NCBI GenBank assembly: GCA_041674185.1
Contig: JBAYWE010000003.1
Location: 896 to 64,895 of the forward strand
Reading direction: 5' to 3'
DNA: 64,000 nt
Source of the DNA: Minisyncoccota bacterium
GTDB taxonomy: Bacteria > Patescibacteriota > Minisyncoccia > UBA6257 > JAGOQP01
Numbering within the stretch: the first letter of the stretch is position 1; every line of letters begins with the position of its first letter. A model generated the notes under the pieces. It was not told the DNA's origin, did no database searches, and saw only the letters and a program-made list of their open reading frames with translations. A program made the translations under genes and the position numbers. This document shows positions 7,202 to 59,970 of the stretch, piece by piece.

Positions 7202-10200
7202 TTATGCTTTCAACACATCAATATCCTCTTCCACCACCTCTTCTTCTTTCTTTTTAAAGAAGATCCAATAGATAAGGAATATAATAATGAGTAAGAGAAG
7301 CAAACTAAACCACCATGATCCGAAAAGTCCTTGGAACGCATCAAATATACTTGCCGTCAAAGTGCGTCCTGAGAGAGTTTCCGCGGTTAGATAAGAACTT
7401 ACCGATTGTGGACGATTCTTACTATCGGTGAAATTAAATACTGAGCTGAAAATAAGAATATCTCCTTTATTAACCCCTGTACTTACTTCACCCTGAATAG
7501 TCACTGAACCTTGATCACCTGACAATACAGTACCAAGATCATAGGTTACCTCGTTTACATTCTGTTCTTTAACACCTCGATCACTTGAAACAAGTTGTAT
7601 GTCGGTTTCGTCAGGAGCAATAATTTTTAAGAATGAATTTGTTAATGGATACGTACACCCATTACGATAGGTTAATGTATAGGTATACGCTTCTCCTGCG
7701 TTTATATTTTGAGGAGCTATACTAGGAACAACTATTAAACAAGAAGATCCTCCTGTTGTTGTATTGGTAAAACTCGTAGTATTTACCGTTGTAATAGTAT
7801 TACCCGTAAATGTTTGCCCTCCCGATTGTGTTTGAACAGCAAGAATATATCCATATACTGTTCCATAACTGTTTTGTGCAACAACTCGATAGAAATATGT
7901 TGTTCCTGGAGTAAGTCGTGTTAATGCATATGATGTTTGTGCATCATTTGTTCCATTTCCTATTTGCTGAGCTGTCGTACGTGATCCCAATCCTGCACTC
8001 GTACCATATTCAAACCATGCAGTTGTATTTGTTATACCATTAGGATTTACCGTTGCATTTAACAATGCAGAGTTCTGAGAAATAAAGGTAGGAGCCTTTG
8101 TTAATACAGTTGCTAATTTTCCAGATGCTTGAGTACCAAATGTATTAAAGGTAAGTATATTTCCATATGAAGTATTTACTTGATTCCGTGCCGCGGCGCG
8201 ATAGTAATATGTTTTCCCAGTTTGTAGTCCAGAAAGTTCTACACTAAAAGGAACAAAGTTTTGAGAATTTTGTATAGATTTCTCATTTGTCTTTGCATCC
8301 ATAGCATCCTTTGTAAGACCATACTCAAACCATGCATATCCTGCGTACCCATTGGTAAACATAGATCCATAAATGGTTGCGCCTGTAAGTGAGATTGCTG
8401 ATGCATTATCAGTGTTTACCAGTGGTCCTCCCGCACTACTTCCTCCACCTCCACCACCTCCGCCACCACCAGAACTTGTTGTAGTAAATGAAAGCACCGT
8501 TCCTTGTGAGCGTCCCCTGGTGTTTTCAGCAACGACACGGAAATAATATACTGTACCCGCACTCAATCCTGAAATATTCGCGGTTACATTTTGTGCTGTA
8601 GAAAGCGTCTGAGATGCTGTCTTTTGACCCAAAGAAGAATCGGCTCCATATTCAAACCAATAGGTACTCGTTAATCCATTTGGATGTATATATCCTGCAA
8701 GTGTTGCATTCGTTTGAGTAATATTAGTTGCATTCTGAGTAGTCACTGTTGGTGCTGAAATACCACCACTTACTGTTGTAATAAATGAAAGTACATTTCC
8801 ATACACACGTCCCTTACTGTTTTGAGAAGCAACACGGAAGTAATATGTCGTATTTGCGCTTAATCCTGAAATGTTTGTGTATATAGGATTTGTTTGTGAT
8901 CCAGATCCTCCATTCTGTGTTGCGCTTCGGCTTCCCAATGTTTGATCAGTACCATATTCAAACCAGTAGGTAGTGGTAAGACTTCCTGGATTCACTGATC
9001 CATTTAAACGAGCGCTTGTACTTGTAATAGTATCTGCAGCGATAGTCTGTGCAATAGGAGCTGTTGTTGTATCTCCTCCTCCCGTTGTTGTAGTAAATGA
9101 AAGCACCGTTCCTTGTGAGCGTCCCATAGTGTTTTCAGCAACGACACGGAAATAATATACTGTACCCGCACTCAATCCTGAAATATTCGCGGTTACATTT
9201 TGTGCTGCATTTATATTTTGTGATGTCGTTATTTGTCCCAATGATTGTGTGGTTCCATATTCAAACCAATAGGTACTCGTTAATCCATTTGGATGTATAT
9301 ATCCTGCAAGTGTTGCATTCGTTTGAGTAATATTAGTTGCATTCTGAGTAGTCACTGTTGGTTTTGAATTTCCCCCATTTCCATTCGTTGTTGAAAAATT
9401 TAATATAGATCCATATGAAGTTCCCTTACTATTTTGAGCTACAGCACGGAAATAGTATGTCGTATTTGCAACCAATCCTGAAATACTGCCTGATATTGCT
9501 TGTACTACTGATCCATTCGTACTTTGTGTTGCGCTTCGGCTTCCCAATGTTTGATCAGTACCATATTCAAACCAGTAGGTAGTGGTAAGACTTCCTGGAT
9601 TCACTGATCCATTTAAACGAGCGCTCGTACTTGTAATAGTATCTGCAGCGATAGTTTGTGCAATAGGAGCTGTTGTTGTATCTCCCCCTCCCGTTGTCGT
9701 AATAAAACTCATAACATTCCCATAAGTACGTCCTTTACTATTTTGAGCTACGGCACGGAAATAGTATGTCGTATTTGCGCTTAATCCTGAGATGCTCGTA
9801 GAAACATCATTTGTTTGTGATCCAGTCCCCGCACCTTGTACTGCTGTACGGCTCCCTAATGTTTGATCAGTACCATATTCAAACCAATAGGTCGTTGCAA
9901 GATTATTTGCATTAATTTGTCCATGGAGCTGAGCTCCTGAAATAGAAGTCGCACTTGCTGCTTGTGTTGAAACTGAGGGTTGTGCGGTGGTATCCCCATT
10001 TGCCCCGGTCGTCGTAAATGAAAGAATTGAACCAGTAGTTCTTCCTTTATTATTCTCTCCAACGACACGATAATAATAGGTGGTGTTTGCAGATAATTGA
10101 GATATTAAAGCACTTACTGACTGCTTTGAGGTAAGCGATTGCGTTAGTGATTGCGTTGCGGTTCTTTGTCCCAAGGAAGAAGTTGTTCCATATTCAAACC

Positions 10201-11287
10201 AATAGTTTGTATCTTGTTTATTGGGAGTAATATCTCCTCGCACGGTTGCAGCTGAAGCTGAAAGACCCGTTGCTAAAATAGTTGTTACAGAAGGAGCTGC
10301 TCCTGTATCATCACTCGCTGCGGTAAAACGGAAACGCACGATAAGAGATCCTTGTGTGCTCCATCCTCCCGCAACGTCTCCAATATTTATACCATTTGAT
10401 GAGGTTATCTCTGCTCCACTCTGTCCAGAAGGAAGCGGTGCACTGGTGCTTACCATTTGATTGGGACGCCATGCAACAGAATCGAATACCATATTCCATG
10501 GTGTTTGAGGTGCTCCCTGAATTTGTATAGTTGTAAATCCTGAAACTGACGCTGCGTTATCTGCCCATAATTTTGAAGTTGCTTGAATTTTTCCTGATAT
10601 AGGATCCACATTGAACGAAAGATTCATGCGTGTGTTTAATGCGGTTGTCCCCGATGTATTGTGATAATACAAACTATAACTCACCACATCTCCTGCTTTT
10701 ACATCGGTTTGATTGCTCCAGGTAGGAGTACCTGGATTGTTTGTATAATTTGAGACACGTAAAGAAGCATAATCCTGTGGATCATTATTAAATATAGGAT
10801 TGCTCAGAACTGCGGTTCTCCCGCTTGAAGTTCCCGCCGGAGATCCAGTCGAGGTTGGATTTGAAGTTGGAGTTCCTCCCGTGCTTTCGTTACTTACTGT
10901 TGTAAACGAAACAATTGATCCCTCCCCTTTTCCATACTGGTTCTGCGCTACTGCACGAAAATAATATGTCGTTCCCGCAGTTAATCCAGAGAGAGAAGCA
11001 GAAACTGCTGATGCAGAGGTTGCATCGCCTCCTGCTTGTACGCTCGTATGACTTCCCAATGATTGAGAGGTGCCGTATTCAAACCAGTATGAAGTTGGTG
11101 CTCCGTTTGCATTTACCTGACCATTCACGGTTGCTCCTGAAGTAGAAACACCACTTGCAGAAGCTGTGGTAACAGTGGGAGTCGCTCCCGCGGCCAGTAC
11201 TGATATATCAGAAAATGGCAAAATGCCGTTTCCTAAGATAAGGCTGATGAGTATTACGAAAATGTTTATTTTTTGTATGTATTTCAT
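7202..11287 (-). CDS. giant cell-surface protein with more than 10 Fn3-like repeats, a DUF11-like C-terminal region and a C-terminal TM anchor
   Basis: N-terminal signal peptide MKYIQKINIFVILISLILG. Repeats of about 90 aa carry the conserved pattern TxTSAxLxGxVNPNGxxTxYWFEYGTxxxLGxxT...ISGLxAxTTYYFRxVAQNxxGxxxGxxxSFTT. A poly-Gly linker SSGGGGGGGGGGSS follows. A CxxVVPSIAPQNINAGEAYTYTLTYRNG region resembles the conserved-repeat DUF11 type. A C-terminal hydrophobic anchor WWFSLLLLLIIIFLIYWIFF is followed by KKKEEE. Confidence 0.7.
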   Translation of the reverse strand: MKYIQKINIFVILISLILGNGILPFSDISVLAAGATPTVTTASASGVSTSGATVNGQVNANGAPTSYWFEYGTSQSLGSHTSVQAGGDATSASAVSASLSGLTAGTTYYFRAVAQNQYGKGEGSIVSFTTVSNESTGGTPTSNPTSTGSPAGTSSGRTAVLSNPIFNNDPQDYASLRVSNYTNNPGTPTWSNQTDVKAGDVVSYSLYYHNTSGTTALNTRMNLSFNVDPISGKIQATSKLWADNAASVSGFTTIQIQGAPQTPWNMVFDSVAWRPNQMVSTSAPLPSGQSGAEITSSNGINIGDVAGGWSTQGSLIVRFRFTAASDDTGAAPSVTTILATGLSASAATVRGDITPNKQDTNYWFEYGTTSSLGQRTATQSLTQSLTSKQSVSALISQLSANTTYYYRVVGENNKGRTTGSILSFTTTGANGDTTAQPSVSTQAASATSISGAQLHGQINANNLATTYWFEYGTDQTLGSRTAVQGAGTGSQTNDVSTSISGLSANTTYYFRAVAQNSKGRTYGNVMSFITTTGGGDTTTAPIAQTIAADTITSTSARLNGSVNPGSLTTTYWFEYGTDQTLGSRSATQSTNGSVVQAISGSISGLVANTTYYFRAVAQNSKGTSYGSILNFSTTNGNGGNSKPTVTTQNATNITQTNATLAGYIHPNGLTSTYWFEYGTTQSLGQITTSQNINAAQNVTANISGLSAGTVYYFRVVAENTMGRSQGTVLSFTTTTGGGDTTTAPIAQTIAADTITSTSARLNGSVNPGSLTTTYWFEYGTDQTLGSRSATQNGGSGSQTNPIYTNISGLSANTTYYFRVASQNSKGRVYGNVLSFITTVSGGISAPTVTTQNATNITQTNATLAGYIHPNGLTSTYWFEYGADSSLGQKTASQTLSTAQNVTANISGLSAGTVYYFRVVAENTRGRSQGTVLSFTTTSSGGGGGGGGGGSSAGGPLVNTDNASAISLTGATIYGSMFTNGYAGYAWFEYGLTKDAMDAKTNEKSIQNSQNFVPFSVELSGLQTGKTYYYRAAARNQVNTSYGNILTFNTFGTQASGKLATVLTKAPTFISQNSALLNATVNPNGITNTTAWFEYGTSAGLGSRTTAQQIGNGTNDAQTSYALTRLTPGTTYFYRVVAQNSYGTVYGYILAVQTQSGGQTFTGNTITTVNTTSFTNTTTGGSSCLIVVPSIAPQNINAGEAYTYTLTYRNGCTYPLTNSFLKIIAPDETDIQLVSSDRGVKEQNVNEVTYDLGTVLSGDQGSVTIQGEVSTGVNKGDILIFSSVFNFTDSKNRPQSVSSYLTAETLSGRTLTASIFDAFQGLFGSWWFSLLLLLIIIFLIYWIFFKKKEEEVVEEDIDVLKA
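8481..9698. repeat. two near-identical 609-bp tandem copies inside the giant surface-protein gene
   Basis: gtagtaaatgaaagcaccgttccttgtgagcgtccc occurs at 8481 and 9090. tttgatcagtaccatattcaaaccagtaggtagtggtaagacttcctgg occurs at 8941 and 9550. The period is 609 bp (203 aa, two Fn3-like modules). More diverged copies flank this pair. Confidence 0.7.
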
Positions 11288-11470: not shown

Positions 11471-12301
11471 TCAAAATCTTACACCGAATGAGAGACCAAA
11501 TCCTCCTCCTGGCGCCATGGAGTTATTTGGATTTGCGGGACCGCCCGTTGGTGGTGTAATTGGTGGATTTACAATGATAGTAGTTCCATTATCTTTCTGC
11601 TGGAGTAACTTATATGTTATAACTCCTAGAGTAATAACGCCCACAGCTCCAAGTGCCCATTTCCACCAATCAGAAGAAGATTCAATTTTCTCTTCATCTT
11701 CCTTTTTTCCTTCTTTTTGAGATTCAAGCCATTCTTCTAAAGTCATTCTAATATTATGTAATTCACCTCCTATAATATCTAACCTTCTATCCATATCACT
11801 TCCGATACTAATAGATATACTTTGAAGCCCTTTTTGAATCAGAAACAAAACACTATCCGATGATGCTGATTGATTCTCTGTTCTTATTTTTTCAACAAAA
11901 GCATCATAATCAACGATTAAAGTGGTCTCAGAAAGATCTAATTCTGTTAGGGATTTTCCCTTTGCATTCTTAATTGGAATTGTTTCATTCTTACAATTTA
12001 CAATTAAAAATTCTTTTATGTGTCCGGACAGGAAAACTTCCCTAGGAACAGAGAGTACGGCCCCCCTATTCATAAGAATAGTAATTTTCTTTCCACTTCC
12101 TGAGTTTGTTCTTACCCAAACATCAGTTCTGGTTTTAAATAGAACCATTCCTGGACCAAATCCAGTAAATGTAAACGTTGGGTCTTGTGGATCATTCCCC
12201 ACCTTAGAATACGGTTGGATATTTTTTGAATCTTGCGCATATGTGTTTATCACCAGCGCAGAAAAAATGAATATAACAAAAATGAATATAATTTTTTTCA
12301 A
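11471..12301 (-). CDS. hypothetical membrane-anchored secreted protein
   Basis: Signal peptide MKKIIFIFVIFIFSALVINTYA, an acidic coiled-coil segment, a C-terminal TM helix WALGAVGVITLGVITYKLL and a Pro/Gly-rich tail. I recognise no family. Confidence 0.45.
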   Translation of the reverse strand: MKKIIFIFVIFIFSALVINTYAQDSKNIQPYSKVGNDPQDPTFTFTGFGPGMVLFKTRTDVWVRTNSGSGKKITILMNRGAVLSVPREVFLSGHIKEFLIVNCKNETIPIKNAKGKSLTELDLSETTLIVDYDAFVEKIRTENQSASSDSVLFLIQKGLQSISISIGSDMDRRLDIIGGELHNIRMTLEEWLESQKEGKKEDEEKIESSSDWWKWALGAVGVITLGVITYKLLQQKDNGTTIIVNPPITPPTGGPANPNNSMAPGGGFGLSFGVRF

Positions 12302-12867: not shown

Positions 12868-12911
12868 ATTGGTTTGGACTATATCTTATTTTTGAATAGA
12901 AATCAATACTG

Positions 12912-12984
12912 AGCCGATGCGCGGATTTGAACCGCGGACCTACTCCTTACCATGGAGTTGCTCTACCAACTGAGCTACATCGGC
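12912..12984 (-). tRNA. tRNA-Thr (anticodon GGT)
   Basis: The reverse complement is GCCGATGTAGCTCAGTTGGTAGAGCAACTCCATGGTAAGGAGTAGGTCCGCGGTTCAAATCCGCGCATCGGCT. The anticodon stem is ACTCC/GGAGT with loop ATGGTAA. Confidence 0.8.
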
Positions 12985-13126: not shown

Positions 13127-13150
13127 ACCTCTCCTTATAACAAGTCGAAG

Positions 13151-13336
13151 TGTGCACGGGGAAGGATTTTCCCTCGCCTCTCGTCGCGTCGCCACGCTCC
13201 TCGGGTTAGGCACCGCCTCGCTGTGCTCATTGCTATTTGCACATGCTCCGGCGTTCAAATCCTTACGTTTCGCACGCAGGTGCGAAACTCCTCCAATCAT
13301 ATTATACACCCCCATTAAGGGAGATTATAATATATG
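13151..13336 (-). other. GC-rich structured element E1 immediately 3' of tRNA-Tyr, ending in a 19-nt direct repeat of the tRNA-Tyr 3' end
   Basis: tgtgcacggggaaggattt occurs at 13335-13353, where it covers the tRNA-Tyr T-arm and acceptor 3' end. It occurs again at 13151-13169. The ~165 nt between the copies are much more GC-rich than the surrounding DNA and contain hairpins (TTTCGCAC-CTGC-GTGCGAAA). The core is homologous to element E2 at 38138..38334 (shared GCGAGGnGGnGCCT...CGAG...GAGCG.GGCGA...AGGCGA blocks). The tRNA-proximal end, CATATATTATAATCTCCCTT, resembles that of E2. Confidence 0.55.
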
Positions 13337-13420
13337 TGCACGGGGAAGGATTTGAACCTTCGTAGCCCGTAGGGCGTCAGATTTACAGTCTGATGCGATT
13401 GACCGCTCCGCCACCCGTGC
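13337..13420 (-). tRNA. tRNA-Tyr (anticodon GTA, long variable arm)
   Basis: The reverse complement is GCACGGGTGGCGGAGCGGTCAATCGCATCAGACTGTAAATCTGACGCCCTACGGGCTACGAAGGTTCAAATCCTTCCCCGTGCA. The anticodon loop is CTGTAAA, the variable stem-loop is GCCC-TAC-GGGC, and the discriminator is A. Confidence 0.85.
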
Positions 13421-36624: not shown

Positions 36625-36685
36625 ATTTGGTATACAGTATAGTATATAAAATACAAGAAAAAATCAACTGAATCTCTATATTCTG

Positions 36686-36757
36686 TACTCCCACTAGGAA
36701 TCGAACCTAGATCTACTCCTTAGAAGGGAGTCGTTCTATCCATTGAACTATGGAAGC
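36686..36757 (-). tRNA. tRNA-Arg (anticodon TCT)
   Basis: The reverse complement is GCTTCCATAGTTCAATGGATAGAACGACTCCCTTCTAAGGAGTAGATCTAGGTTCGATTCCTAGTGGGAGTA. The anticodon stem is ACTCC/GGAGT with loop CTTCTAA. Confidence 0.8.
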
Positions 36758-38066: not shown

Positions 38067-38137
38067 GGGCCCATAGTATAGCGGTAGAACGATTCCATGG
38101 CATGGAATAGGTCGGGGTTCGACTCCCCGTGGGTCCA
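38067..38137 (+). tRNA. tRNA-Ala (anticodon GGC)
   Basis: GGGCCCATAGTATAGCGGTAGAACGATTCCATGGCATGGAATAGGTCGGGGTTCGACTCCCCGTGGGTCCA. The G3:U70 Ala identity pair is present and the anticodon loop is ATGGCAT. Confidence 0.85.
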
Positions 38138-38334
38138 CATATATAATCCCTTTGTAGAATTTTTATATGTGAAAAAAAATTTCACAACTACTTATGAAAT
38201 GTCGGGGAGGCGAAGACCGCAGCGTTATGCATTCAGTAGAATGCATCGCGAGGGGCGGCCTGCGAGTTTGTTGAGCGACGGCGAAACAAAACTTGTAGGC
38301 GACTCCCCGTGGGTCCACATATATAATCCCTTTG
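38138..38334 (+). other. GC-rich structured element E2 immediately 3' of tRNA-Ala, ending in a 35-nt direct repeat of the tRNA-Ala 3' end plus downstream bases
   Basis: cgactccccgtgggtccacatatataatccctttg occurs at 38120-38154, where it covers the tRNA-Ala T-loop to the 3' end plus 17 downstream nt. It occurs again at 38300-38334. The body contains perfect hairpins (TGTGAAA-AAAA-TTTCACA; ATGCATTC-AGTA-GAATGCAT) and a GC-rich core homologous to E1. Its 5' CGGGGAG can pair with the CTCCCCG inside the terminal repeat. Confidence 0.55.
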
Positions 38335-53715: not shown

Positions 53716-54578
53716 TTTACGATTCCCGACATCGTAAGATATAATAATAGAAACAAATAAATATGAGAAAAATATCTTTCTCCAATGACGGTATCTATCA
53801 TATTTTTAATAGAGGAGTCGATAAAAGAACTATATTTCTAGAAGACGGTGATTATTTTAGATTCATACATGATTTATATGAATTTAATGACGAATCACCA
53901 GCGGAGAATATTTATTACAAAACCTCCTCCTTACAATCTTACGATGTCGGGAATCGTAAGATACAAAAAAAGGTGCGAACCTTACTTGTTGATATTATTG
54001 CATTTTGTATAATGCCCAATCATTTTCATTTACTTGTAAAACAACGTGTAGAAAATGGCATTACATTGTTTATGAAAAAACTCGGAGGAGGATATGCAAA
54101 TTATTTTAATACAAAAAATGAACGATCAGGAACCTTGTTTCAAGGACGGTTTCAGGCAGTTCCTATTGATACAGATGAATATCTCACGTACATTCCATTT
54201 TATATTCACGCCAACCCCATAGAACTGTATGATCCAGGGTGTAAAGAATCTGGTTTTTCAAAAAACAAAAAAGATGTTTTACATTTCTTAGAATCTTATA
54301 GGTGGTCAAATTTTCCAGATTGTATAGGTAAGAAAAATTTTCCCTCGGTTACACAAAGAGATTTTATTCTGAATTATTTTGGCGGACCTCTTCAATATAA
54401 AAAATATATGCTGAATTGGATGGATCGATTTGCTTCTTCAAAAATTTCTGCAAATACAACTACAAAAATAGAAGTGTCGGACAGAGACATGCGAGATATC
54501 ACCCTAGACTAGAGACTAGACTCGAAACTACTAGACTAAAAGTTATATTTATGTTCTTACGATTCCGGGAATCGTAAG
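53716..54578 (+). mobile_element. IS200/RAYT-like HUH transposase unit with REP-like hairpins
   Basis: Three copies of the 23-bp imperfect palindrome CTTACGAT-N7-ATCGTAAG lie at 53716-53738 (upstream, inverted loop), 53938-53960 (inside the CDS) and 54556-54578 (downstream). They bracket the transposase gene 53763..54512. Confidence 0.5.
53763..54512 (+). CDS. IS200/IS605-family (Y1 HUH) transposase / REP-associated tyrosine transposase-like
   Basis: YHIFNRG near the N-terminus, the HUH motif MPNHFHLLV, and a catalytic Tyr region YIPFYIHANPI, matching the Y1 transposase (Transposase_17) pattern. A C-terminal extension of about 100 aa is present. Confidence 0.65.
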   Translation: MRKISFSNDGIYHIFNRGVDKRTIFLEDGDYFRFIHDLYEFNDESPAENIYYKTSSLQSYDVGNRKIQKKVRTLLVDIIAFCIMPNHFHLLVKQRVENGITLFMKKLGGGYANYFNTKNERSGTLFQGRFQAVPIDTDEYLTYIPFYIHANPIELYDPGCKESGFSKNKKDVLHFLESYRWSNFPDCIGKKNFPSVTQRDFILNYFGGPLQYKKYMLNWMDRFASSKISANTTTKIEVSDRDMRDITLD

Positions 54579-54741: not shown

Positions 54742-57700
54742 ATGATACGCGTACCATTTTTACAACAGCGGAGAGGTTTTTCGTTGGCCGAACTTATTAT
54801 CTATTTGGGTATTCTCGGTATATCAGCCGGGATTTTCGGTGGTATGTTAAATACCATCAGCACTACTCAAATTGCGGAGTTTAATCAGAATGAAGTTTCT
54901 GGACAATTAAACTTTGCTATACAAACTATTCAACGTTATGTACGCGCGGCAAGTATTATAGAAGGAGAATCAGGAATTCCGAGTTCTACGCTTGTATTAC
55001 AGATGCCTGTTGCCGCACAAAATCCAACAAGCATTTCTCTGCAGAATAATCGTATTTATATTACTCAGGGAGCAACGGGGACACCACTTGCCATTACGAA
55101 TGATAAAGTTTCTATTGATAATTTAGAATTTCGTCGTTTTGCACAACCTGCCTCAAAAGATGTTGTCCAAATTGATATTGCTATCTCACAAGAATCAGCC
55201 GGAGGAAAACGTATTGCTCGTTCATTGCGCTCCGCTATTACTCGTGTGAACGCCGCTGCATTTGATAGCGATCTTATTCCTAATTCCGACGGTTCATATA
55301 ATGTGGGTACGTACCCTTCCGCACGATGGCGTGACGGATCATTTTCTGGACAAGTTTCCGCTGGATCATTTTGTTTTGCTTCTGATTGTCGTACATCGTG
55401 GGCAAACATCGCAGGAGTAAGTGGAAGTGGAAGCGCAAATTATATTGCAAAATGGAATACTGCAAGTACCATTAACGCCTCAACTCTTATTTATGATAAC
55501 GGCACCAATGTAGGAATCGGTGCTATTAACCCTGGATACAAACTCGATGTACAAGGCGGACAAATTAATACTTCAGGTGGACTTTGTATTAACGGTGATT
55601 GTAAAACAGCGTGGTCTCAAATTGCGGGCACCCAGGCGTGGACGGCAACCGGAACCAGTATTTATTACAACACGGGAAATGTAGGGATTGGAATGGTAAA
55701 TCCGGGATCAAAACTAGATGTTTTAGGTGATATTCGATCAGGAACTTCGTACCGAACCAGCATCCAAGGAGATGGTTCTGGAGCAAGGGTTCTATTTGGA
55801 TCTGAAGGAGATCCAGATTATTTAGGTATTATTGGAGCTTTCGCATCAATGATGCAAATTGATAGTTATAATGGACCACTTGTATTTAAGGAGGCTGGTT
55901 CTGAAAAAGTTAGAATTACTTCCGGTAACGTTGGCATTGGAACAACAGCACCTGGTGCCAAACTACATGTTTCTGGAGGGAGTATTTTAATGGATAATAA
56001 CCTTGCATTTAAATTCAAAGATTCCACAGGAACTGCACAAAATGTATTCTTCGCTGGTACTGATAACGTACTCTATATTCAACCGCTTAACGTAACCAAG
56101 GGAACTTCTATTCAATATGGAAATCTTGGTGTAGGTACTAACGTACCCACCGCAAAGCTACAAGTGAATCCCGGAACCGCGGTTGAAGGAATTCGTATTA
56201 TTTCGAGTGACTACTCCCCTTTTATTATTCGTAACTCTGCCGACACTGCTGATTTGTTCCGCGTAGATCAAAATGGAAATATTACTGGAGGAACAGGAAA
56301 TGCAAGTGCATGGACACGTAATTCAACCAGTGGCTATTTATATACAAGTACTTTAACCGACAAAGTTGGTATTGGAACAGCAACACCCGGAACCTATAAC
56401 GGCGTCGTATCTGGTTTAGAAGTAAAAGGATCTAGTCATACCGGAATAGCGATTAATTCTCCAACGGATTATGCGGCAAGTCTTACTTTGGCTGAAAATA
56501 ATAATCCTATGTGGCACTTACTCTCCAGAGGAGATTCTGCTAATAGATTTGAATTATATGCTGCTGATGGAACAAGTAATGGAGCAAAAATAACTGTATT
56601 GCAAGGTGGAAATGTGGGTATTGGAACGATAGCACCAACATCAAGATTGGTAGTAAGTTCCTCAGGTATATCAGCTGGAACACCAGAATTTGTTGTTGGT
56701 GATTATGGAACAATAAAATTAAAAACATATCAAACTGGAAGTACTTATGCTGCGATTTATACAGGAGCTAATGAAGATTTAAGAATTACTGCTGGGACAG
56801 ATAGTTCTCAATTAGTATTAAAAGCAAACAATGGAAACGTCGGTATCGGGACTGCCTCCCCTGCTCAAAAACTATCTGTTGCGGGAACTATAGAATCAAC
56901 TTCAGGTGGTGTTAAGTTTCCTGACGGCACCACACAAACCACTGCATATGCAGGAGGGACTCAAACAATTGTTTCCGGAAATGTTTCCTCAGGTGCGTTT
57001 GGTAGTAATACGGGGGGTGGAAATTATAGTTTTCCGGGTAATGTGGGGATAGGGACAACAAGTCCGGGAAAAACCTTGCATGTGGTAGGCGATGTTCGTG
57101 GTGGAGCTTATTATAATACGAACTCTGGCGACGGTTGGTTGATAAATCAGGATTCGGGAACAAACCGAGGACTATATTATTACAATACCGCAGGAACTTG
57201 GGATTTCTTTGACGGAGGTACATCAAAGGTAAGTATCAACACCAGTGGGAATATACAAATGGACGGAGTATTAACAATAAGTGGGACAGGAAATACAACA
57301 ATAGCCGGTAACGTCGGTATCGGAACAACGGCACCTCAATCTACTGTTAAACTTGATGTTCGACAAAGCCTCACAAACGGCACTGCTATTGCTGGATATG
57401 TTTATGACGCTACCCAAGAAATAACGGCACTATACGGTGTTGCCTATCCAACAACAGGTAGCGCGGCAGCGTATGGAATGCGAGGTGAGGCAGGTGGCAC
57501 ACGTACAACTGGAACAAATATCGGTGGTTACTTTTCTGCAAGTGGTGCAACAAATAATTATGCTTTGATTACAGGAGGTGGCAACGTCGGTATCGGTACT
57601 GCCTCCCCTGCTCAAAAACTATCTGTTGCGGGAACTATAGAATCAACTTCAGGTGGTGTTAAGTTTCCTGATGGTACTACACAGACAACTGCATATGCAG

Positions 57701-59970
57701 GAGGAACCCAGACAGTGGTAGCGGGAAATGTATCTTCGGGTGCGTTTGGTGCAAATACTGGCGGTGGAAATTATAGTTTTCCAGGTAATATGGGAATTGG
57801 AGTAGCAAGTCCTTCGTATAAATTGGAGATTGGAGCTTTGAGTGGTTCTGTAGAACCCACGAGCTTGAAAATAAATGGTGGTGCAACCAATGTTACTCAG
57901 ATTCGTATTGGTGATAACTATACCGCAGCAGTTGGTACTCGATATTCTGGAGCAGAGGCTTACCTATCGAGTAACTCTTATCAGAATACATTAGGAGCTG
58001 ACTCATGGGCTAAAACAGCAACCACATACGGATCAACCATGCTTTCTTTGGGAATTAGTTCTACTTTAACTTCACCAGCACTTCAAGTTAAATTTTCTCC
58101 GGCAAGTACAGCAAATGGAGCTATAGCCTCTTTCTTCCCAAATGATTTATTTACTATTCTCGGTAATGGAAGTGTTGGTATTGGAACGGTATCACCCGGA
58201 GGAAAATTAACTGTGGATGGATCTGGAGAGACACTCATTAAGTTGCAATCAGGTGGCACTGAGTTTGGTGAAATCGGCACCTATTCGAGTGGTTTGATAA
58301 TAGGTACCAATACCGCTGTTCCGTTGACTTTAGAAACCAGCAATACGGCAAGAGTAACTGTTCTCGGTGGTGGTAATGTGGGTATTGGAACGACGAGTCC
58401 GGGAGCAAAATTACATATCCAAACTGATACCTCAGGAACGCAAATACCATTTGATATCTACGGATATAGAACAGCAGCACCAGCAAGTGCTACTCATTTA
58501 GCCCAAATATCTCAAATAGGAACTTATGGCCAAGGTGTTTTGGATCTATATAACTCCGCCCAGGTTAGTGCTATTCATCTTGCAACAGATGGTAACAGTT
58601 ATATAGTACCGCAAAATTCTGGCAACTTTGGTATCGGAACCACTACTCCTGCTACAGCACTTCATGTCGTTGGTACAGTAACCGCGAGTGCTTTTAGTGG
58701 TGCTCTTTCAGGAACGGTAACCGCCCCGAATGTATCTTCTGGTGCGTTTGGTGCAAATACCGGAGGTGGAAATTATAGCTTCCCTGCTAATGTCGGTATT
58801 GGAATTGCAAGTCCGGGAAGCCAGCTACATGTTTATTCAGCAACAACAGGTATCTTTACTTTAGAGGGGGCTACTACAGGTGCTTATACGGCAGCTGACA
58901 TGCTTCTAAAAAGCAGCGGCTCATCTGGTATGCGGGGTACAGGAGTATTTATGTATGATTCTCTAGCACAGAAAGAATGGTATGCGGGAACTCCATATAG
59001 TGCTACTGATTCTTACATGATTGGAAGAAAATCCTCGGTTGCTAGTCACGATTCATCGATTGCCCAAACATCAAACGCTCTATTGGTTATTAATAACACC
59101 GGCAACGTCGGAATTGGAATAGCAAATCCGGTAAAAAAATTACAGGTACATGGAGATATAGCCCTATCAAATGGAGGAAGGATCGGACAAGGAAATGGAT
59201 GGGGCACTGATGGTAATTCTTATAATGCGACTTTAGAACTATATAATGGAGCAACCGGATATACTACTCTACAATCCGCAACAGCTTATGGGATATTACT
59301 CAATCCTTCGGGTGGCAATGTCGGCATCGGGACGACGGCACCGAACTATAAACTACATACTTATGTTGCTTCTGGAAATACAGAAAATAGATTTCAGACT
59401 GCTGGAACAGGATATGCTGCACTAAGCTTAATTAATAACACAAATAATTTATATGTAGGAGTTAATGATAGTATAGGAACAGGAATGTTTTCTTCGGGAG
59501 GTATAGCAAATGCTGGAGCATTATATACCCTTGGGAGTTATCCATTACAATTAGGAACTTCAAATCTTCCCAGAGTTACAATTGACAGCGCCGGCAACGT
59601 CGGCATCGGGACGACGGGGCCTACCCATAAACTTGATGTATCTGGTTCATTTTATTCTCGTCTTATTACCAAGGGCAATTGTACTGGTGCGGTTACCATT
59701 GATTGGAATGCAGGAAACACCCAACATTGTGTACTTACCGGAAATGTGACCTTCACCTTCTCAAATGGACAAAGCGGAGGTAACTATAAATTGGTCTTAA
59801 AACAAGGCGGTACCGGATCATACACGATCACGTGGCCTGGAACGGTGCGTTGGGGTGGAGCTGTCTCCCCCACACTCACCACTACCGTGGGTAAGAGCGA
59901 CTATGTAGGATTCTTCTACAACGGAGTAGATAGTACGTATGACGGAAATGCATTTAATGCAAACTTCTAA
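54742..59970 (+). CDS. giant (1742 aa) pilin-like protein with a class III signal peptide and tail-fibre-like GNVGIGTTxPxxKLxV repeats
   Basis: The N-terminus QQRRGFSLAELIIYLGILGISAGIFGG has G-F at the cleavage site and Glu at +5. The body holds more than 20 copies of a (G)NVGIGT(T/A)SPxxKL(H/S)VxG motif, which resembles the phage tail-fibre repeat (Phage_fiber_2-like) consensus. The repeats are separated by Gly/Thr/Ser-rich beta segments. Confidence 0.65.
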   Translation: MIRVPFLQQRRGFSLAELIIYLGILGISAGIFGGMLNTISTTQIAEFNQNEVSGQLNFAIQTIQRYVRAASIIEGESGIPSSTLVLQMPVAAQNPTSISLQNNRIYITQGATGTPLAITNDKVSIDNLEFRRFAQPASKDVVQIDIAISQESAGGKRIARSLRSAITRVNAAAFDSDLIPNSDGSYNVGTYPSARWRDGSFSGQVSAGSFCFASDCRTSWANIAGVSGSGSANYIAKWNTASTINASTLIYDNGTNVGIGAINPGYKLDVQGGQINTSGGLCINGDCKTAWSQIAGTQAWTATGTSIYYNTGNVGIGMVNPGSKLDVLGDIRSGTSYRTSIQGDGSGARVLFGSEGDPDYLGIIGAFASMMQIDSYNGPLVFKEAGSEKVRITSGNVGIGTTAPGAKLHVSGGSILMDNNLAFKFKDSTGTAQNVFFAGTDNVLYIQPLNVTKGTSIQYGNLGVGTNVPTAKLQVNPGTAVEGIRIISSDYSPFIIRNSADTADLFRVDQNGNITGGTGNASAWTRNSTSGYLYTSTLTDKVGIGTATPGTYNGVVSGLEVKGSSHTGIAINSPTDYAASLTLAENNNPMWHLLSRGDSANRFELYAADGTSNGAKITVLQGGNVGIGTIAPTSRLVVSSSGISAGTPEFVVGDYGTIKLKTYQTGSTYAAIYTGANEDLRITAGTDSSQLVLKANNGNVGIGTASPAQKLSVAGTIESTSGGVKFPDGTTQTTAYAGGTQTIVSGNVSSGAFGSNTGGGNYSFPGNVGIGTTSPGKTLHVVGDVRGGAYYNTNSGDGWLINQDSGTNRGLYYYNTAGTWDFFDGGTSKVSINTSGNIQMDGVLTISGTGNTTIAGNVGIGTTAPQSTVKLDVRQSLTNGTAIAGYVYDATQEITALYGVAYPTTGSAAAYGMRGEAGGTRTTGTNIGGYFSASGATNNYALITGGGNVGIGTASPAQKLSVAGTIESTSGGVKFPDGTTQTTAYAGGTQTVVAGNVSSGAFGANTGGGNYSFPGNMGIGVASPSYKLEIGALSGSVEPTSLKINGGATNVTQIRIGDNYTAAVGTRYSGAEAYLSSNSYQNTLGADSWAKTATTYGSTMLSLGISSTLTSPALQVKFSPASTANGAIASFFPNDLFTILGNGSVGIGTVSPGGKLTVDGSGETLIKLQSGGTEFGEIGTYSSGLIIGTNTAVPLTLETSNTARVTVLGGGNVGIGTTSPGAKLHIQTDTSGTQIPFDIYGYRTAAPASATHLAQISQIGTYGQGVLDLYNSAQVSAIHLATDGNSYIVPQNSGNFGIGTTTPATALHVVGTVTASAFSGALSGTVTAPNVSSGAFGANTGGGNYSFPANVGIGIASPGSQLHVYSATTGIFTLEGATTGAYTAADMLLKSSGSSGMRGTGVFMYDSLAQKEWYAGTPYSATDSYMIGRKSSVASHDSSIAQTSNALLVINNTGNVGIGIANPVKKLQVHGDIALSNGGRIGQGNGWGTDGNSYNATLELYNGATGYTTLQSATAYGILLNPSGGNVGIGTTAPNYKLHTYVASGNTENRFQTAGTGYAALSLINNTNNLYVGVNDSIGTGMFSSGGIANAGALYTLGSYPLQLGTSNLPRVTIDSAGNVGIGTTGPTHKLDVSGSFYSRLITKGNCTGAVTIDWNAGNTQHCVLTGNVTFTFSNGQSGGNYKLVLKQGGTGSYTITWPGTVRWGGAVSPTLTTTVGKSDYVGFFYNGVDSTYDGNAFNANF
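56839..57800. repeat. near-identical internal DNA repeats (period 747 bp) within the giant pilin-like gene
   Basis: gtcggtatcgg(g/t)actgcctcccctgctcaaaaactatctgttgcgggaactatagaatcaacttcaggtggtgttaagtttcctga occurs at 56839 and 57586. A third, more diverged copy lies near 58736. Confidence 0.6.

Follow-up and report, generated by a model that had tools for sequence, protein, structure and literature searches.

What is the GC-rich, 185-bp stretch that follows tRNA-Tyr at this locus, and why does it end in a second copy of the tRNA's own 3' end? The first-pass annotation had drawn attention to a 19-nt sequence occurring twice, 184 bp apart, around a structured core with a homolog beside tRNA-Ala, and had proposed three explanations: a family of miniature non-autonomous integrative elements targeting tRNA 3' ends, two homologous remnants of decayed integrated elements, or a small structured RNA family co-transcribed and processed with tRNAs. 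We first asked whether the repeat itself is real within the window (the whole 64-kb stretch of Minisyncoccota DNA that was analyzed), and we confirmed that it is. tRNA-Tyr(GTA) lies on the minus strand, and in tRNA sense the 19-mer AAATCCTTCCCCGTGCACA occurs at 13353-13335 and again at 13169-13151, 184 nt apart. It covers the end of the T-loop, the T-stem 3' strand, the acceptor 3' strand, and the discriminator plus CA. Among the 12 tRNAs of the window, only Tyr (19 nt) and Ala (at least 22 nt by script, 35 nt by eye at 38120-38154/38300-38334) have such a downstream copy; all the others have matches of 13 nt or less, which reflect tRNA-tRNA similarity. The GC content is 0.56-0.58 in the element against about 0.33-0.40 in the flanks, and both elements, hereafter E1 (Tyr) and E2 (Ala), fold better than shuffled sequences (z = -3.5 and -5.5). 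The homology of E1 and E2 was confirmed by a covariance model of the family (R1), although both sequences were among the 71 from which the model was built. Nothing else in the 64 kb scored above 12 bits, and only 2 of the 12 tRNAs carry an element. The parts of the two loci are as follows.

13336..13420, minus strand: tRNA-Tyr(GTA), intact, class II, with a long variable arm (called by ARAGORN; 62.4 bits with the Rfam tRNA model).
13335..13353, minus strand: S1, the first copy of the 19-mer AAATCCTTCCCCGTGCACA, which is the tRNA's own 3' end from the T-loop to the discriminator plus CA.
13298..13334, minus strand: a predicted AT-rich hairpin directly after the tRNA; in other family members this position holds a terminator-like palindrome (A-run, hairpin, T-run), but a terminator scan called none here.
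13289..13296, minus strand: a degenerate outer 5' arm (TTGGAGGA), which in well-preserved members is the reverse complement of the acceptor 3' strand.
13267..13288, minus strand: hairpin Ha (GTTTCGCA CCTGC GTGCGAAAC), conserved and covarying (9 pairs, all with double changes), which splits the inverted copy of the tRNA end at the acceptor/T-stem junction.
13253..13264, minus strand: S'b, AAGGATTT plus GAAC, the reverse complement of the tRNA-Tyr T-loop and T-stem 3' strand (GTTCAAATCCTT; a 12-nt antisense match) and the 5' strand of closing helix P1.
13170..13256, minus strand: the conserved GC-rich three-way-junction core, comprising GAACGCCGGAGC, hairpin hp1, GCGAGGCGGTG, hairpin hp2, and AGAGGCGAGGG.
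13151..13169, minus strand: S2, the second, direct copy of the 19-mer, the first 8 nt of which form the 3' strand of P1.
13145..13300, minus strand: the whole of E1 as matched by R1 (119.7 bits).
38067..38138, plus strand: tRNA-Ala(GGC), the upstream partner of E2.
38120..38154, plus strand: S1 of E2, the first copy of the 35-nt repeat CGACTCCCCGTGGGTCCACATATATAATCCCTTTG, which is the tRNA-Ala 3' end plus 16 nt of trailer.
38167..38325, plus strand: the whole of E2 as matched by R1 (95.8 bits), a diverged variant in which the core starts GCGAAGACCGCAGC, P1 is CGGGGAG/CTCCCCG, and there is no outer 5' arm.
38300..38334, plus strand: S2 of E2, the second copy of the 35-nt repeat, followed by an intact hairpin plus T-run (AATCCCTTTGGGGATTTT).

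The first-pass observation therefore stands, with three corrections. The operon runs on the minus strand. The element also contains an inverted copy of the tRNA T-arm sequence (AAGGATTTGAAC, 13264-13253), which had been missed. Lastly, the statement that the element does not fold as a tRNA is only partly true, since its closing helix is built from tRNA T-stem and T-loop sequence.

Next, we investigated whether E1 and E2 belong to a wider family. One core motif hit at least 120 genome loci, and R1 confirmed at least 77 loci, nearly all behind tRNAs, from about 70 species-level Patescibacteria (CPR) genomes at 56-153 bits, with 92 hits in all, including tandem pairs and several hits per 8-kb locus. 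Of 83 motif hits, a few of which are chance matches in GC-rich genomes, 56 have a same-strand tRNA within 350 nt upstream. The copies sit 26-300 nt behind tRNAs of at least 13 amino-acid identities (Arg, Ser, Pro, Glu, Asp, Gly, Tyr, Ala, Trp, Gln, Leu, Ile, and Lys). As far as sampled, the family is confined to Patescibacteria. We noted that the arms of each copy derive from the local tRNA: 47 of the 56 have a direct copy of 8-27 nt, and 44 of the 56 an inverted copy of 8-16 nt, of that tRNA's end. When the whole locus was searched, four direct repeats ran 30 nt or more, and overall the repeat length varies from about 10 to more than 30 nt. Locus L007, from a relative, has the element after a tRNA-Tyr of quite different sequence, and its arms match that tRNA. 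Inverted copies of 10 nt or more occur at 25 of 70 tRNAs with the element but at only 5 of 93 without, and at least two of those five carry diverged elements.

To test whether the core is conserved as a structure, we examined base-pair covariation. Over 39 pairs, 90.1% of cells are paired, against 37-43% when the partner is slid, and there are 626 double-change cells against 134-177 in the controls. None of 500 shuffles reached the observed values, except for the count of pairs with a double change, which 1 of 500 reached. The Ha, hp1, and hp2 helices are not tRNA-derived, and all or nearly all of their pairs show double changes. By contrast, the apparent covariation of P1 mostly reflects different source tRNAs rather than compensatory change. 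G-U pairs (82) barely outnumber A-C (56), which is unusual for a selected RNA and would fit helices kept perfect at the DNA level, for example by hairpin-templated correction. Nevertheless, unpaired core positions are 73% purine, GGAA (GNRA) loops are present, and GA/AG mismatches outnumber CU/UC (49 to 32), consistent with one strand being read as RNA. Orthologous tRNA-plus-element stretches are 90-96% identical, while adjacent coding DNA is 71-81% identical. Because copies were ascertained with a core motif, core conservation is partly built into the sample. A search for loop-loop kissing between Ha, hp1, and hp2 gave no signal above controls.

We then asked how the copies are related to one another. 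Copies in one genome resemble each other more than copies at the same tRNA in other genomes, with mosaic similarity between them. The nearest core neighbor of L007 (Tyr) is L074, which follows tRNA-Arg(TCT) on the same contig, at 86% identity. This one traceable same-contig pair is a mutual nearest neighbor across different tRNAs. Only 6 of 53 nearest core neighbors sit at a tRNA of the same type, and the same-tRNA effect is small (0.641 against 0.614 mean identity), which led us to reject ancient vertical inheritance per tRNA type. Presence at a given tRNA also varies between relatives: the site equivalent to L074 is empty in the window, where tRNA-Arg(TCT) at 36685-36757 has no element. A synteny-based empty site for E2 was not found, as the Nramp-gene neighborhood is not conserved in relatives.

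No partner in cis or in known catalogs was identified. At Rfam 15 gathering thresholds the whole window gave only the 12 tRNAs, and a permissive search (E up to 10) of both elements gave only the tRNAs and sub-threshold noise, for example tmRNA_permuted at 14.5 bits against a gathering score of 47, a match that runs from the tRNA-Ala T-arm to the downstream copy. A 5S rRNA-like three-way junction was also considered, but there was no Rfam 5S hit. All-against-all clustering of ORFs within 3 kb of about 75 copies found no recurrent recombinase. Of 42 viral contigs that matched the motif, none matched the model, hence a phage origin was rejected. No paper describing such a family was found. The conditions under which the first-pass finding would have failed were thus examined and came out in its favor: homologs are tRNA-associated, the repeats occur in relatives, and no Rfam family matches.

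Collectively, our results suggest, at roughly even confidence, that E1 and E2 are two copies of a large, previously uncatalogued family of about 150-190-nt non-autonomous, structure-dependent repeats, probably also RNAs. Each copy sits just downstream of a tRNA gene, on the same strand, and comprises S', an inverted copy of that tRNA's 3' end interrupted by Ha at the acceptor/T-stem junction; a conserved GC-rich three-way-junction core of about 90-110 nt; and S2, a direct copy of the tRNA 3' end that begins at T-loop position ~56-57 and runs to the discriminator, often into the trailer. Because the tRNA end is duplicated, the tRNA gene stays intact. What the analysis establishes is that the element carries no enzyme, is conserved as a structure, and is dispersed over many different tRNAs within a genome; the rest, including its status as an RNA, is inferred from sequence alone. 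We infer that the repeat spreads, or is homogenized, between tRNA loci of one genome, the likely route being recombination or template switching through the near-universal T-loop sequence that forms the inner part of its closing helix, and that its arms are re-templated on the local tRNA by short-patch conversion between direct and inverted repeats. This copying route is conjecture, as no intermediate, clean empty/filled junction, or mobilizing enzyme was found. On the tRNA-sense strand, the transcript could close P1 (S'b with S2) over the core, and in about half the copies a short acceptor-like helix would extend this to give a tRNA-minihelix-like RNA. However, that helix is well formed in only about 30-50% of copies, and S' matches the real tRNA end better than it matches S2 (21:1 and 21:4), hence P1 may not be the selected pairing. 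The core is probably the module recognized by a trans-acting factor or needed for RNA function.

The earlier interpretation is thus partly supported. Its first option, a family of miniature non-autonomous elements tied to tRNA 3' ends, is supported as a description, but the proposed integrase/att mechanism is not: no recombinase recurs near the copies, att duplication does not explain the inverted copy (found essentially only at tRNAs that carry the element), the copies sit at many different tRNAs with locally matching arms, and the repeat length varies. The second option, two decayed remnants, is not supported, since the core is conserved across CPR lineages with compensatory changes and evolves more slowly than neighboring coding DNA. 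The third, a structured RNA family co-transcribed with tRNAs, fits the covariation, the purine-rich unpaired positions, and the GNRA loops, but remains unproven in the absence of expression data.

Among the alternatives, a cis-acting RNA switch on tRNA folding or maturation survives best; we consider it unlikely but not excluded. In this view S' is a switching strand that can pair with the tRNA's own 3' end, extending the post-tRNA hairpin and unfolding the acceptor and T arms, or instead with the decoy copy S2, closing P1 over an aptamer-like three-way junction, and a ligand or protein bound to the core would decide whether the upstream tRNA matures. The core has about 16 invariant and 20 near-invariant positions, mostly in conserved stretches at the junction and internal loops, as aptamers do. 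S' is kept complementary to the real tRNA end (90%, against 80% to S2), and the acceptor part of S2 decays while the P1 part is kept, for example at locus L119. In 44 of 48 loci the predicted minimum-energy fold of the whole tRNA-plus-element transcript pairs the tRNA 3' end with S' and loses the acceptor stem, and for E1 and E2 the joint fold is about 8.6 kcal/mol more stable than tRNA and element folded separately, although such folds ignore co-transcriptional folding and tRNA tertiary structure. The conservation above neighboring coding DNA is also in line with this view. On the other hand, only a minority of tRNAs carry the element and the set differs between relatives, which is odd for a regulator; in many loci a terminator-like hairpin with a T-run lies between the tRNA and S' and would separate them on RNA; and the S'/S1/S2 identities are close to what neutral decay from one duplication predicts. 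As in riboswitch or attenuator expression platforms, a conserved junction-rich core would be closed by a helix (P1), one strand of which has a predicted alternative upstream partner, and the pairings would be mutually exclusive. Here, however, the alternative partner is a tRNA's own 3' end rather than a terminator or a ribosome-binding site, the element lies downstream of its putative target rather than in a 5' UTR, and no ligand is known. In its boldest form, which we regard as doubtful, the family would be a new class of tRNA-coupled RNA device, in which a three-way-junction sensor uses the decoy copy to hold, or release, an antisense strand that unzips the acceptor and T arms of the tRNA transcribed just upstream. 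It would be a cis-acting switch, or an addictive selfish module, that rebuilds its own guide arms from whichever tRNA it lands behind.

Less likely still is a stand-alone tRNA-like small RNA gene, cut out by RNase P and RNase Z and acting in trans, with an acceptor-like helix, Ha in place of the D and anticodon arms, and an extended T stem capped by the core. Ha sits exactly at the acceptor/T-stem junction of the 5' strand, where the body of a tRNA emerges. A helix of 4 bp or more anchored at that junction occurs in 48% of copies against about 16% in controls, with a full 7-9-bp acceptor-like helix at loci L040, L088, L097, and L109, and P1 (8 bp) is present in about 80% of cells. In tandem arrays, each unit is followed by its own terminator-like hairpin, as tRNA genes are. 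However, the acceptor-like helix is absent or degenerate in about half the copies, including E1 and E2, a trans function gives no reason for the arms to match the neighboring tRNA, and neither ARAGORN nor the Rfam tRNA model detects the element. Like tRNA-like RNAs (the tmRNA tRNA-like domain, bacterial YrlA/Y RNA, mascRNA, viral tRNA-like structures), the element would have a coaxial acceptor/T-stem-like helix built from its 5' and 3' ends, a foreign domain replacing part of the tRNA body, and possible processing by tRNA enzymes. It differs in that the T-loop itself is replaced by the core, the acceptor helix is often degenerate, the helices are copies of the neighboring tRNA rather than of a fixed type, and there is no match to Rfam models of these families.

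Similarly improbable is a DNA-level hairpin element mobilized in trans as single-stranded DNA, like REP/REPIN elements with their RAYT (Y1/HUH) transposase. The near-equal G-U and A-C counts, and the fact that more than 87% of cells are Watson-Crick pairs, are as expected if both strands must pair, and the mosaic similarity between copies in one genome suggests frequent DNA exchange. Moreover, the window encodes an IS200-like/RAYT-like Y1 transposase at 53763-54512, the only candidate enzyme, flanked by hairpins containing CGATTCC/GGAATCG, a T-loop-like 7-mer. However, no copies of the element were found in 138 kb around 38 homologous Y1 genes, each of which has its own short, genome-specific hairpins instead. 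Y1 transposition does not duplicate 20-35 bp of target or create an inverted target copy, and the purine-rich unpaired positions and GNRA loops point to one strand being read as RNA. Like REP/REPIN and MITE-like palindromic repeats (e.g. REP-RAYT, ERIC, Correia, RPE), the element is short, non-coding, hairpin-forming, and multi-copy, has inverted repeats (S' and S2) and no enzyme in cis, and varies in presence between relatives, with copies in a genome resembling each other. Unlike them, its terminal inverted repeats are copied from the adjacent tRNA rather than being element-specific, its location is tRNA-linked and orientation-specific, and its core is a three-way junction shared across CPR lineages rather than a simple palindrome.

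Integrase-mediated attL/attR footprints, whether remnants of larger elements or cis-mobilizable mini-elements (CIMEs), are already largely refuted: the direct repeat starting in the T-loop is the classic signature of T-loop-class integrase sites, and here too the tRNA stays intact with the insert between the two copies, but beyond the objections above (including the absence of one fixed target tRNA) no integrase lies near any of the approximately 75 copies examined, the insert is only about 130-170 nt, the conserved core directly abuts the repeat and is more conserved than the flanking genes, the size of about 150-190 nt holds across CPR lineages, and no viral copies were found.

Other readings were also rejected. 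Group I introns and homing-endonuclease cassettes occur in CPR tRNA genes (PMC13011429), and relatives of this genome carry a group I intron in tRNA-Thr(GGT) and a LAGLIDADG insertion that left a duplicated tRNA-Tyr 5' fragment. However, there was no Intron_gpI hit in the Rfam searches, the tRNA is already complete and needs no splicing, and the splice-site rules (U before the 5' site, G before the 3' site) cannot be met, because inside an exact repeat the base before each splice point is the same; at the left edge of the repeat the bases are C and A. This also excludes a "T-loop" intron. An origin by reverse transcription of a mature tRNA (primer-binding-site-like) is contradicted by inverted and direct copies that continue into the genomic trailer, not into CCA, for example at loci L087, L041, and L109 and in E2. 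A TnpB/IscB-type guide RNA or a homing endonuclease drive was rejected by inference, as the intact upstream tRNA still carries the would-be target and the element-bearing allele would not be immune. Lastly, locus L029 has a 230-aa helix-turn-helix plus LAGLIDADG-like ORF between tRNA-Glu and a core, found once in this position, which might have represented an autonomous version, but its homologs sit after tRNA-Glu without the element, hence we read it as an independent insertion.

In practice, the elements create false att-site signatures and tRNA-fragment calls in genome annotation, and the covariance model built here could annotate them across thousands of metagenome-assembled genomes. CPR bacteria are a large share of bacterial diversity, with tiny genomes in which non-coding DNA is scarce, and a conserved, multi-copy structured element next to many of their tRNA genes is therefore unlikely to be junk. 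If it is a mobile or self-homogenizing DNA repeat, its arms are re-templated from the adjacent gene, which no described repeat family is known to do. If it is an RNA, it is a new widespread RNA class that borrows tRNA helices and may act on tRNA maturation.

The tRNA-Tyr(GTA) gene lies on the minus strand. Read in tRNA sense, the 19-mer AAATCCTTCCCCGTGCACA occurs at its 3' end and again downstream of the gene, and covers the end of the T-loop, the T-stem 3' strand, the acceptor 3' strand and the discriminator plus CA. The DNA between the two copies is 56-58% GC, in a genome of roughly 33-40%, and folds better than shuffled controls (z = -3.5). After tRNA-Ala(GGC), a 35-nt stretch consisting of the tRNA 3' end plus 16 nt of trailer is likewise repeated 180 nt downstream, and flanks a core that is alignable with the first. 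None of the other ten tRNAs in the window has such a copy. The duplicated tRNA 3' end described in the first-pass annotation is confirmed. However, that annotation had missed one feature: each element also holds an inverted copy of the tRNA T-loop and T-stem. The features of the two elements, E1 (behind tRNA-Tyr) and E2 (behind tRNA-Ala), are as follows.

13336-13420, minus strand: tRNA-Tyr(GTA)
13353-13335, minus strand: first copy of the 19-mer AAATCCTTCCCCGTGCACA
13264-13253, minus strand: inverted copy of the T-loop and T-stem in E1, AAGGATTTGAAC
13169-13151, minus strand: second copy of the 19-mer
38067-38138, plus strand: tRNA-Ala(GGC)
38120-38154, plus strand: first copy of the 35-nt repeat
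38203-38209: inverted copy of the T-loop and T-stem in E2, CGGGGAG
38300-38334, plus strand: second copy of the 35-nt repeat

We also noted that, at both elements (13327-13356, minus strand; 38119-38147, plus strand), a sigma-70-like promoter match uses the tRNA T-loop as its -35 hexamer (TTCAAA / TCGACT), while a TATAAT/TATTAT in the trailer (CACATATAT(T)ATAAT) serves as the -10. In E2, the duplicated repeat recreates the same arrangement downstream of the element. Elsewhere in the window (7202-11287, 54742-59970 and 62570-64000), the repeat content is dominated by very large secreted or surface proteins with many internal repeats, namely fn3-like units of about 300 nt, GNVGIGT-type units, and 129-nt units.

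Next, we investigated whether relatives have the element. The window is part of a 73-kb metagenome contig, and its EF-Ts and Nramp proteins place it in Paceibacterota (Parcubacteria), within the candidate phyla radiation (CPR). The syntenic tRNA-Tyr locus looks different in each relative. In L007 (a relative whose EF-Ts is 75% identical), the tRNA-Tyr has a quite different sequence and is followed by a homologous element, both arms of which match that tRNA and not ours. By contrast, in L003 (EF-Ts 82% identical) the element is absent, and the window-type tRNA-Tyr survives only as a 23-nt 5' fragment (GCACGGGTGGCGGAGTGGTCAAT, cut in the D-loop). A 271-aa LAGLIDADG_3 gene sits between this fragment and a complete tRNA-Tyr with a different acceptor stem (L003:10930-11846), an arrangement that looks like a homing-endonuclease cassette that replaced the resident tRNA-Tyr and the element. 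A third relative, L010, carries nested tRNA-Tyr fragments and no element; a 5' tRNA-Tyr fragment comes first, then a 9-bp inverted repeat (CCGATAGTG/CACTATCGG) enclosing a complete tRNA-Tyr, then a 3' tRNA-Tyr fragment ending in CCA (L010:10896-11125). Moreover, tRNA-Thr(GGT) in L010 (11435-11695) and L007 (11895-12150) is interrupted after GGU of the anticodon loop by an insert of about 190-200 nt that ends in G, i.e. a group I-type intron, whereas the tRNA-Thr(GGT) of the window (12911-12984) has no intron. A second small repeat family was seen at L007:11420-11450 and 11725-11890 and at L074:4905-5190 (a locus on the same contig as L007), in which 5' fragments of tRNA-Thr or tRNA-Phe (up to the D-loop, ...AGCTCAGTGG) are fused to a conserved sequence, GGTTTAAAGCAAAC-ATTTTGCTTTAAACGGGAAATCC..., upstream of the complete tRNA. 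This family duplicates tRNA 5' ends, as the family studied here duplicates 3' ends. tRNA loci are evidently hot spots of rearrangement in this lineage.

To estimate the size of the family, we scanned the motif AACGCCGGAGC-N8-38-GCGAGGCGG over one genome per species, which returned at least 120 loci. About two thirds of these are Patescibacteria MAGs (Saccharibacteria, Paceibacterota, and Magasanik-, Yanofsky-, Uhr-, Komeili-, Nomura-, Kuenen-, Kaiser-, Adler-, Portnoy- and Taylorbacteria), while the rest are chance hits in GC-rich genomes. A covariance model (R1), built from 71 aligned copies, confirmed 77 loci at 56-153 bits, with 92 hits in all because several 8-kb loci hold two copies or tandem pairs. 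In the window, with filters off, only E1 (119.7 bits) and E2 (95.8 bits) match R1. None of the 42 viral contigs that matched the motif matches the model. Canonical copies were also present on four contigs labelled as uncultured Gammaproteobacteria in TPA assemblies (L013, L021, L050 and L083); for L013, neighbouring ORFs also cluster with those of Patescibacteria loci. These taxonomic labels are probably wrong. Diverged variants of the core (for example GAAGGCGGAGTG ... ACGAGCCGGGGTC) lie between the tRNA and a canonical copy at L088:3552-3673, L119:4103-4263 and in the gap at 950-1190 of L109, giving tRNA, variant, canonical arrays. The family is broader than the motif used to find it.

Of 83 motif hits, 56 have a same-strand tRNA 26-300 nt upstream, and these tRNAs cover at least 13 amino-acid identities. 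In 47 of the 56, the DNA after the core repeats 8-27 nt of that tRNA's 3' end, and a whole-locus search extends four of these repeats to 30 nt or more. The repeat nearly always starts at CGA(A/T)TCC in the T-loop and often runs into the trailer. In 44 of the 56, the DNA before the core carries 8-16 nt of the reverse complement. The alignment gives the following order of parts, 5' to 3' in tRNA sense.

S'a: the reverse complement of the acceptor 3' strand and trailer
Ha: a hairpin, consensus GCGAGCCAA-CUGC-UUGGCUCGC
S'b: the reverse complement of the T-stem 3' strand and T-loop
GAAC-GCCGGAGC, then hairpin hp1
GCGAGGCGGUG, then hairpin hp2, which has conserved internal loops
AGAGGCGAGG
S2: the direct copy of the tRNA 3' end

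Between the tRNA and S'a many loci have an A-run / hairpin / T-run, and the tRNA end, this hairpin and S'a together form one long palindrome. Inverted copies of the tRNA end of 10 nt or more occur at 25 of 70 tRNAs with the element and at 5 of 93 without, and at least two of those five carry diverged elements. The inverted copy (S') therefore belongs to the element, and is not a general property of CPR terminators.

We then asked whether the structure is under selection. On the 71-sequence alignment, 90.1% of cells form standard pairs, against 37-43% when partners are slid by 1-3 columns, and there are 626 double-change cells, against 134-177 in the slid controls. No shuffle of 500 reached the observed values, except for the count of pairs with a double change, where 1 of 500 did. 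RNAalifold independently found Ha, hp1 and hp2. These three helices are not tRNA-derived, hence their covariation is informative; by contrast, covariation in the closing helix P1 (S'b with S2) mainly reflects the different source tRNAs. Orthologous tRNA-plus-element stretches are 90-96% identical while neighbouring coding DNA is 71-81% identical, which argues for constraint. Evidence on the strand and the molecule is, however, mixed. Unpaired core positions are 73% purine, GGAA tetraloops occur, and GA/AG mismatches exceed CU/UC, all of which speak for an RNA on the tRNA-sense strand. On the other hand, G-U pairs (82) barely exceed A-C (56), which would suit hairpins kept perfect at the DNA level.

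We next considered whether the element is mobile or inherited. No recombinase, transposase or endonuclease family recurs near the copies. One copy (L029) has a 230-aa helix-turn-helix (HTH) plus LAGLIDADG-like ORF (L029:5457-6149) between tRNA-Glu and the core; its homologues sit behind tRNA-Glu in other genomes without the element, so we take it as an independent insertion. At this locus S2, not the tRNA's present 3' end, pairs better with the tRNA's 5' strand. The ORF belongs to a CPR family of about 230-aa proteins (also at L142:2501-3184 and L146:2501-3190) that have no Pfam hit, an N-terminal HTH, and an ALYWGEGYK motif suggesting LAGLIDADG. The gene repeatedly sits about 60-80 nt downstream of tRNA-Glu(TTC), which suggests a free-standing homing endonuclease with that site preference. 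Cores are most similar within a genome, whatever the tRNA: L007 (Tyr) and L074 (Arg-TCT), on the same contig, share 86%. Sharing a tRNA type adds little (mean identity 0.641 against 0.614), and similarity is also mosaic, with hp1 shared in one pair and hp2 in another. The tRNA-Arg(TCT) site that is filled in L074 is empty in the window. Tandem and partial duplications occur, in the loci L083, L059 and L076. Collectively, these results indicate intragenomic spread, frequent short-patch exchange, or both, and do not indicate ancient vertical descent per tRNA.

We also compared the three copies of the tRNA end within each locus. Where they differ, S' matches the real tRNA end (S1) rather than S2, with counts of 21:1 for S'b and 21:4 for S'a. 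The identities (S'-S1 90%, S2-S1 81%, S'-S2 80%) are near what independent decay from one copying event predicts. The acceptor-like helix across Ha is clearly present in only about a third to a half of copies, and E1 and E2 are poor in this respect. Thermodynamically, the whole tRNA-plus-element transcript prefers to pair the tRNA 3' end with S' in 44 of 48 loci, with loss of the acceptor stem, and for E1 and E2 the joint fold beats the separate folds by about 8.6 kcal/mol. So one of three things must hold: transcription normally stops at the intervening hairpin, tRNA processing outruns S', or the competition between S1 and S2 for S' is the point of the device.

Rfam 15 has nothing like the core. 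The element shares alternative pairing with riboswitch platforms, but sits downstream of a tRNA. It shares a minihelix-like closing stem with tRNA-like RNAs, but lacks a T-loop and often lacks an acceptor helix. It shares a multi-copy hairpin character with REP/MITE elements; its termini, however, are copied from the neighbouring gene, and the CPR RAYT-like genes show no association. The window itself encodes an IS200-like / REP-associated (RAYT-like) Y1 transposase at 53763-54512 (Pfam Y1_Tnp, 3e-9), with hairpins at 53717-53740 and 54557-54577 and a third at 53936-53959 inside the ORF; these hairpins contain CGATTCC/GGAATCG. However, 38 metagenomic homologues are each flanked by their own genome-specific hairpins, several of them T-arm-like (GAGGTTCGACCTC), and none has the tRNA-linked element nearby. 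Literature searches found group I introns in Patescibacteria tRNA genes (PMC13011429), which explains the tRNA-Thr intron seen in relatives but not this element. Lastly, the element shares the 3'-end duplication with integrase att sites, but fails on the presence of an integrase, on a single target and on size. The first-pass annotation, which had weighed integrase-mediated insertion at tRNA 3' ends among other options, was partly supported in its interpretation.

The finding is real, and it is larger than could be seen from the single stretch of sequence. The anatomy, the distribution, the covariation and the within-genome similarity rest directly on our analysis. By contrast, the copying mechanism (recombination or template switching through T-loop homology, followed by conversion of the arms) and any RNA function are our inference. 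The elements form a widespread, conserved, tRNA-linked structured family of CPR bacteria that we could not place in any known family. With about even confidence, we read it as a non-autonomous, structure-dependent repeat, probably also expressed as RNA, that disperses or homogenises among the tRNA loci of a genome and takes its arms from the local tRNA.
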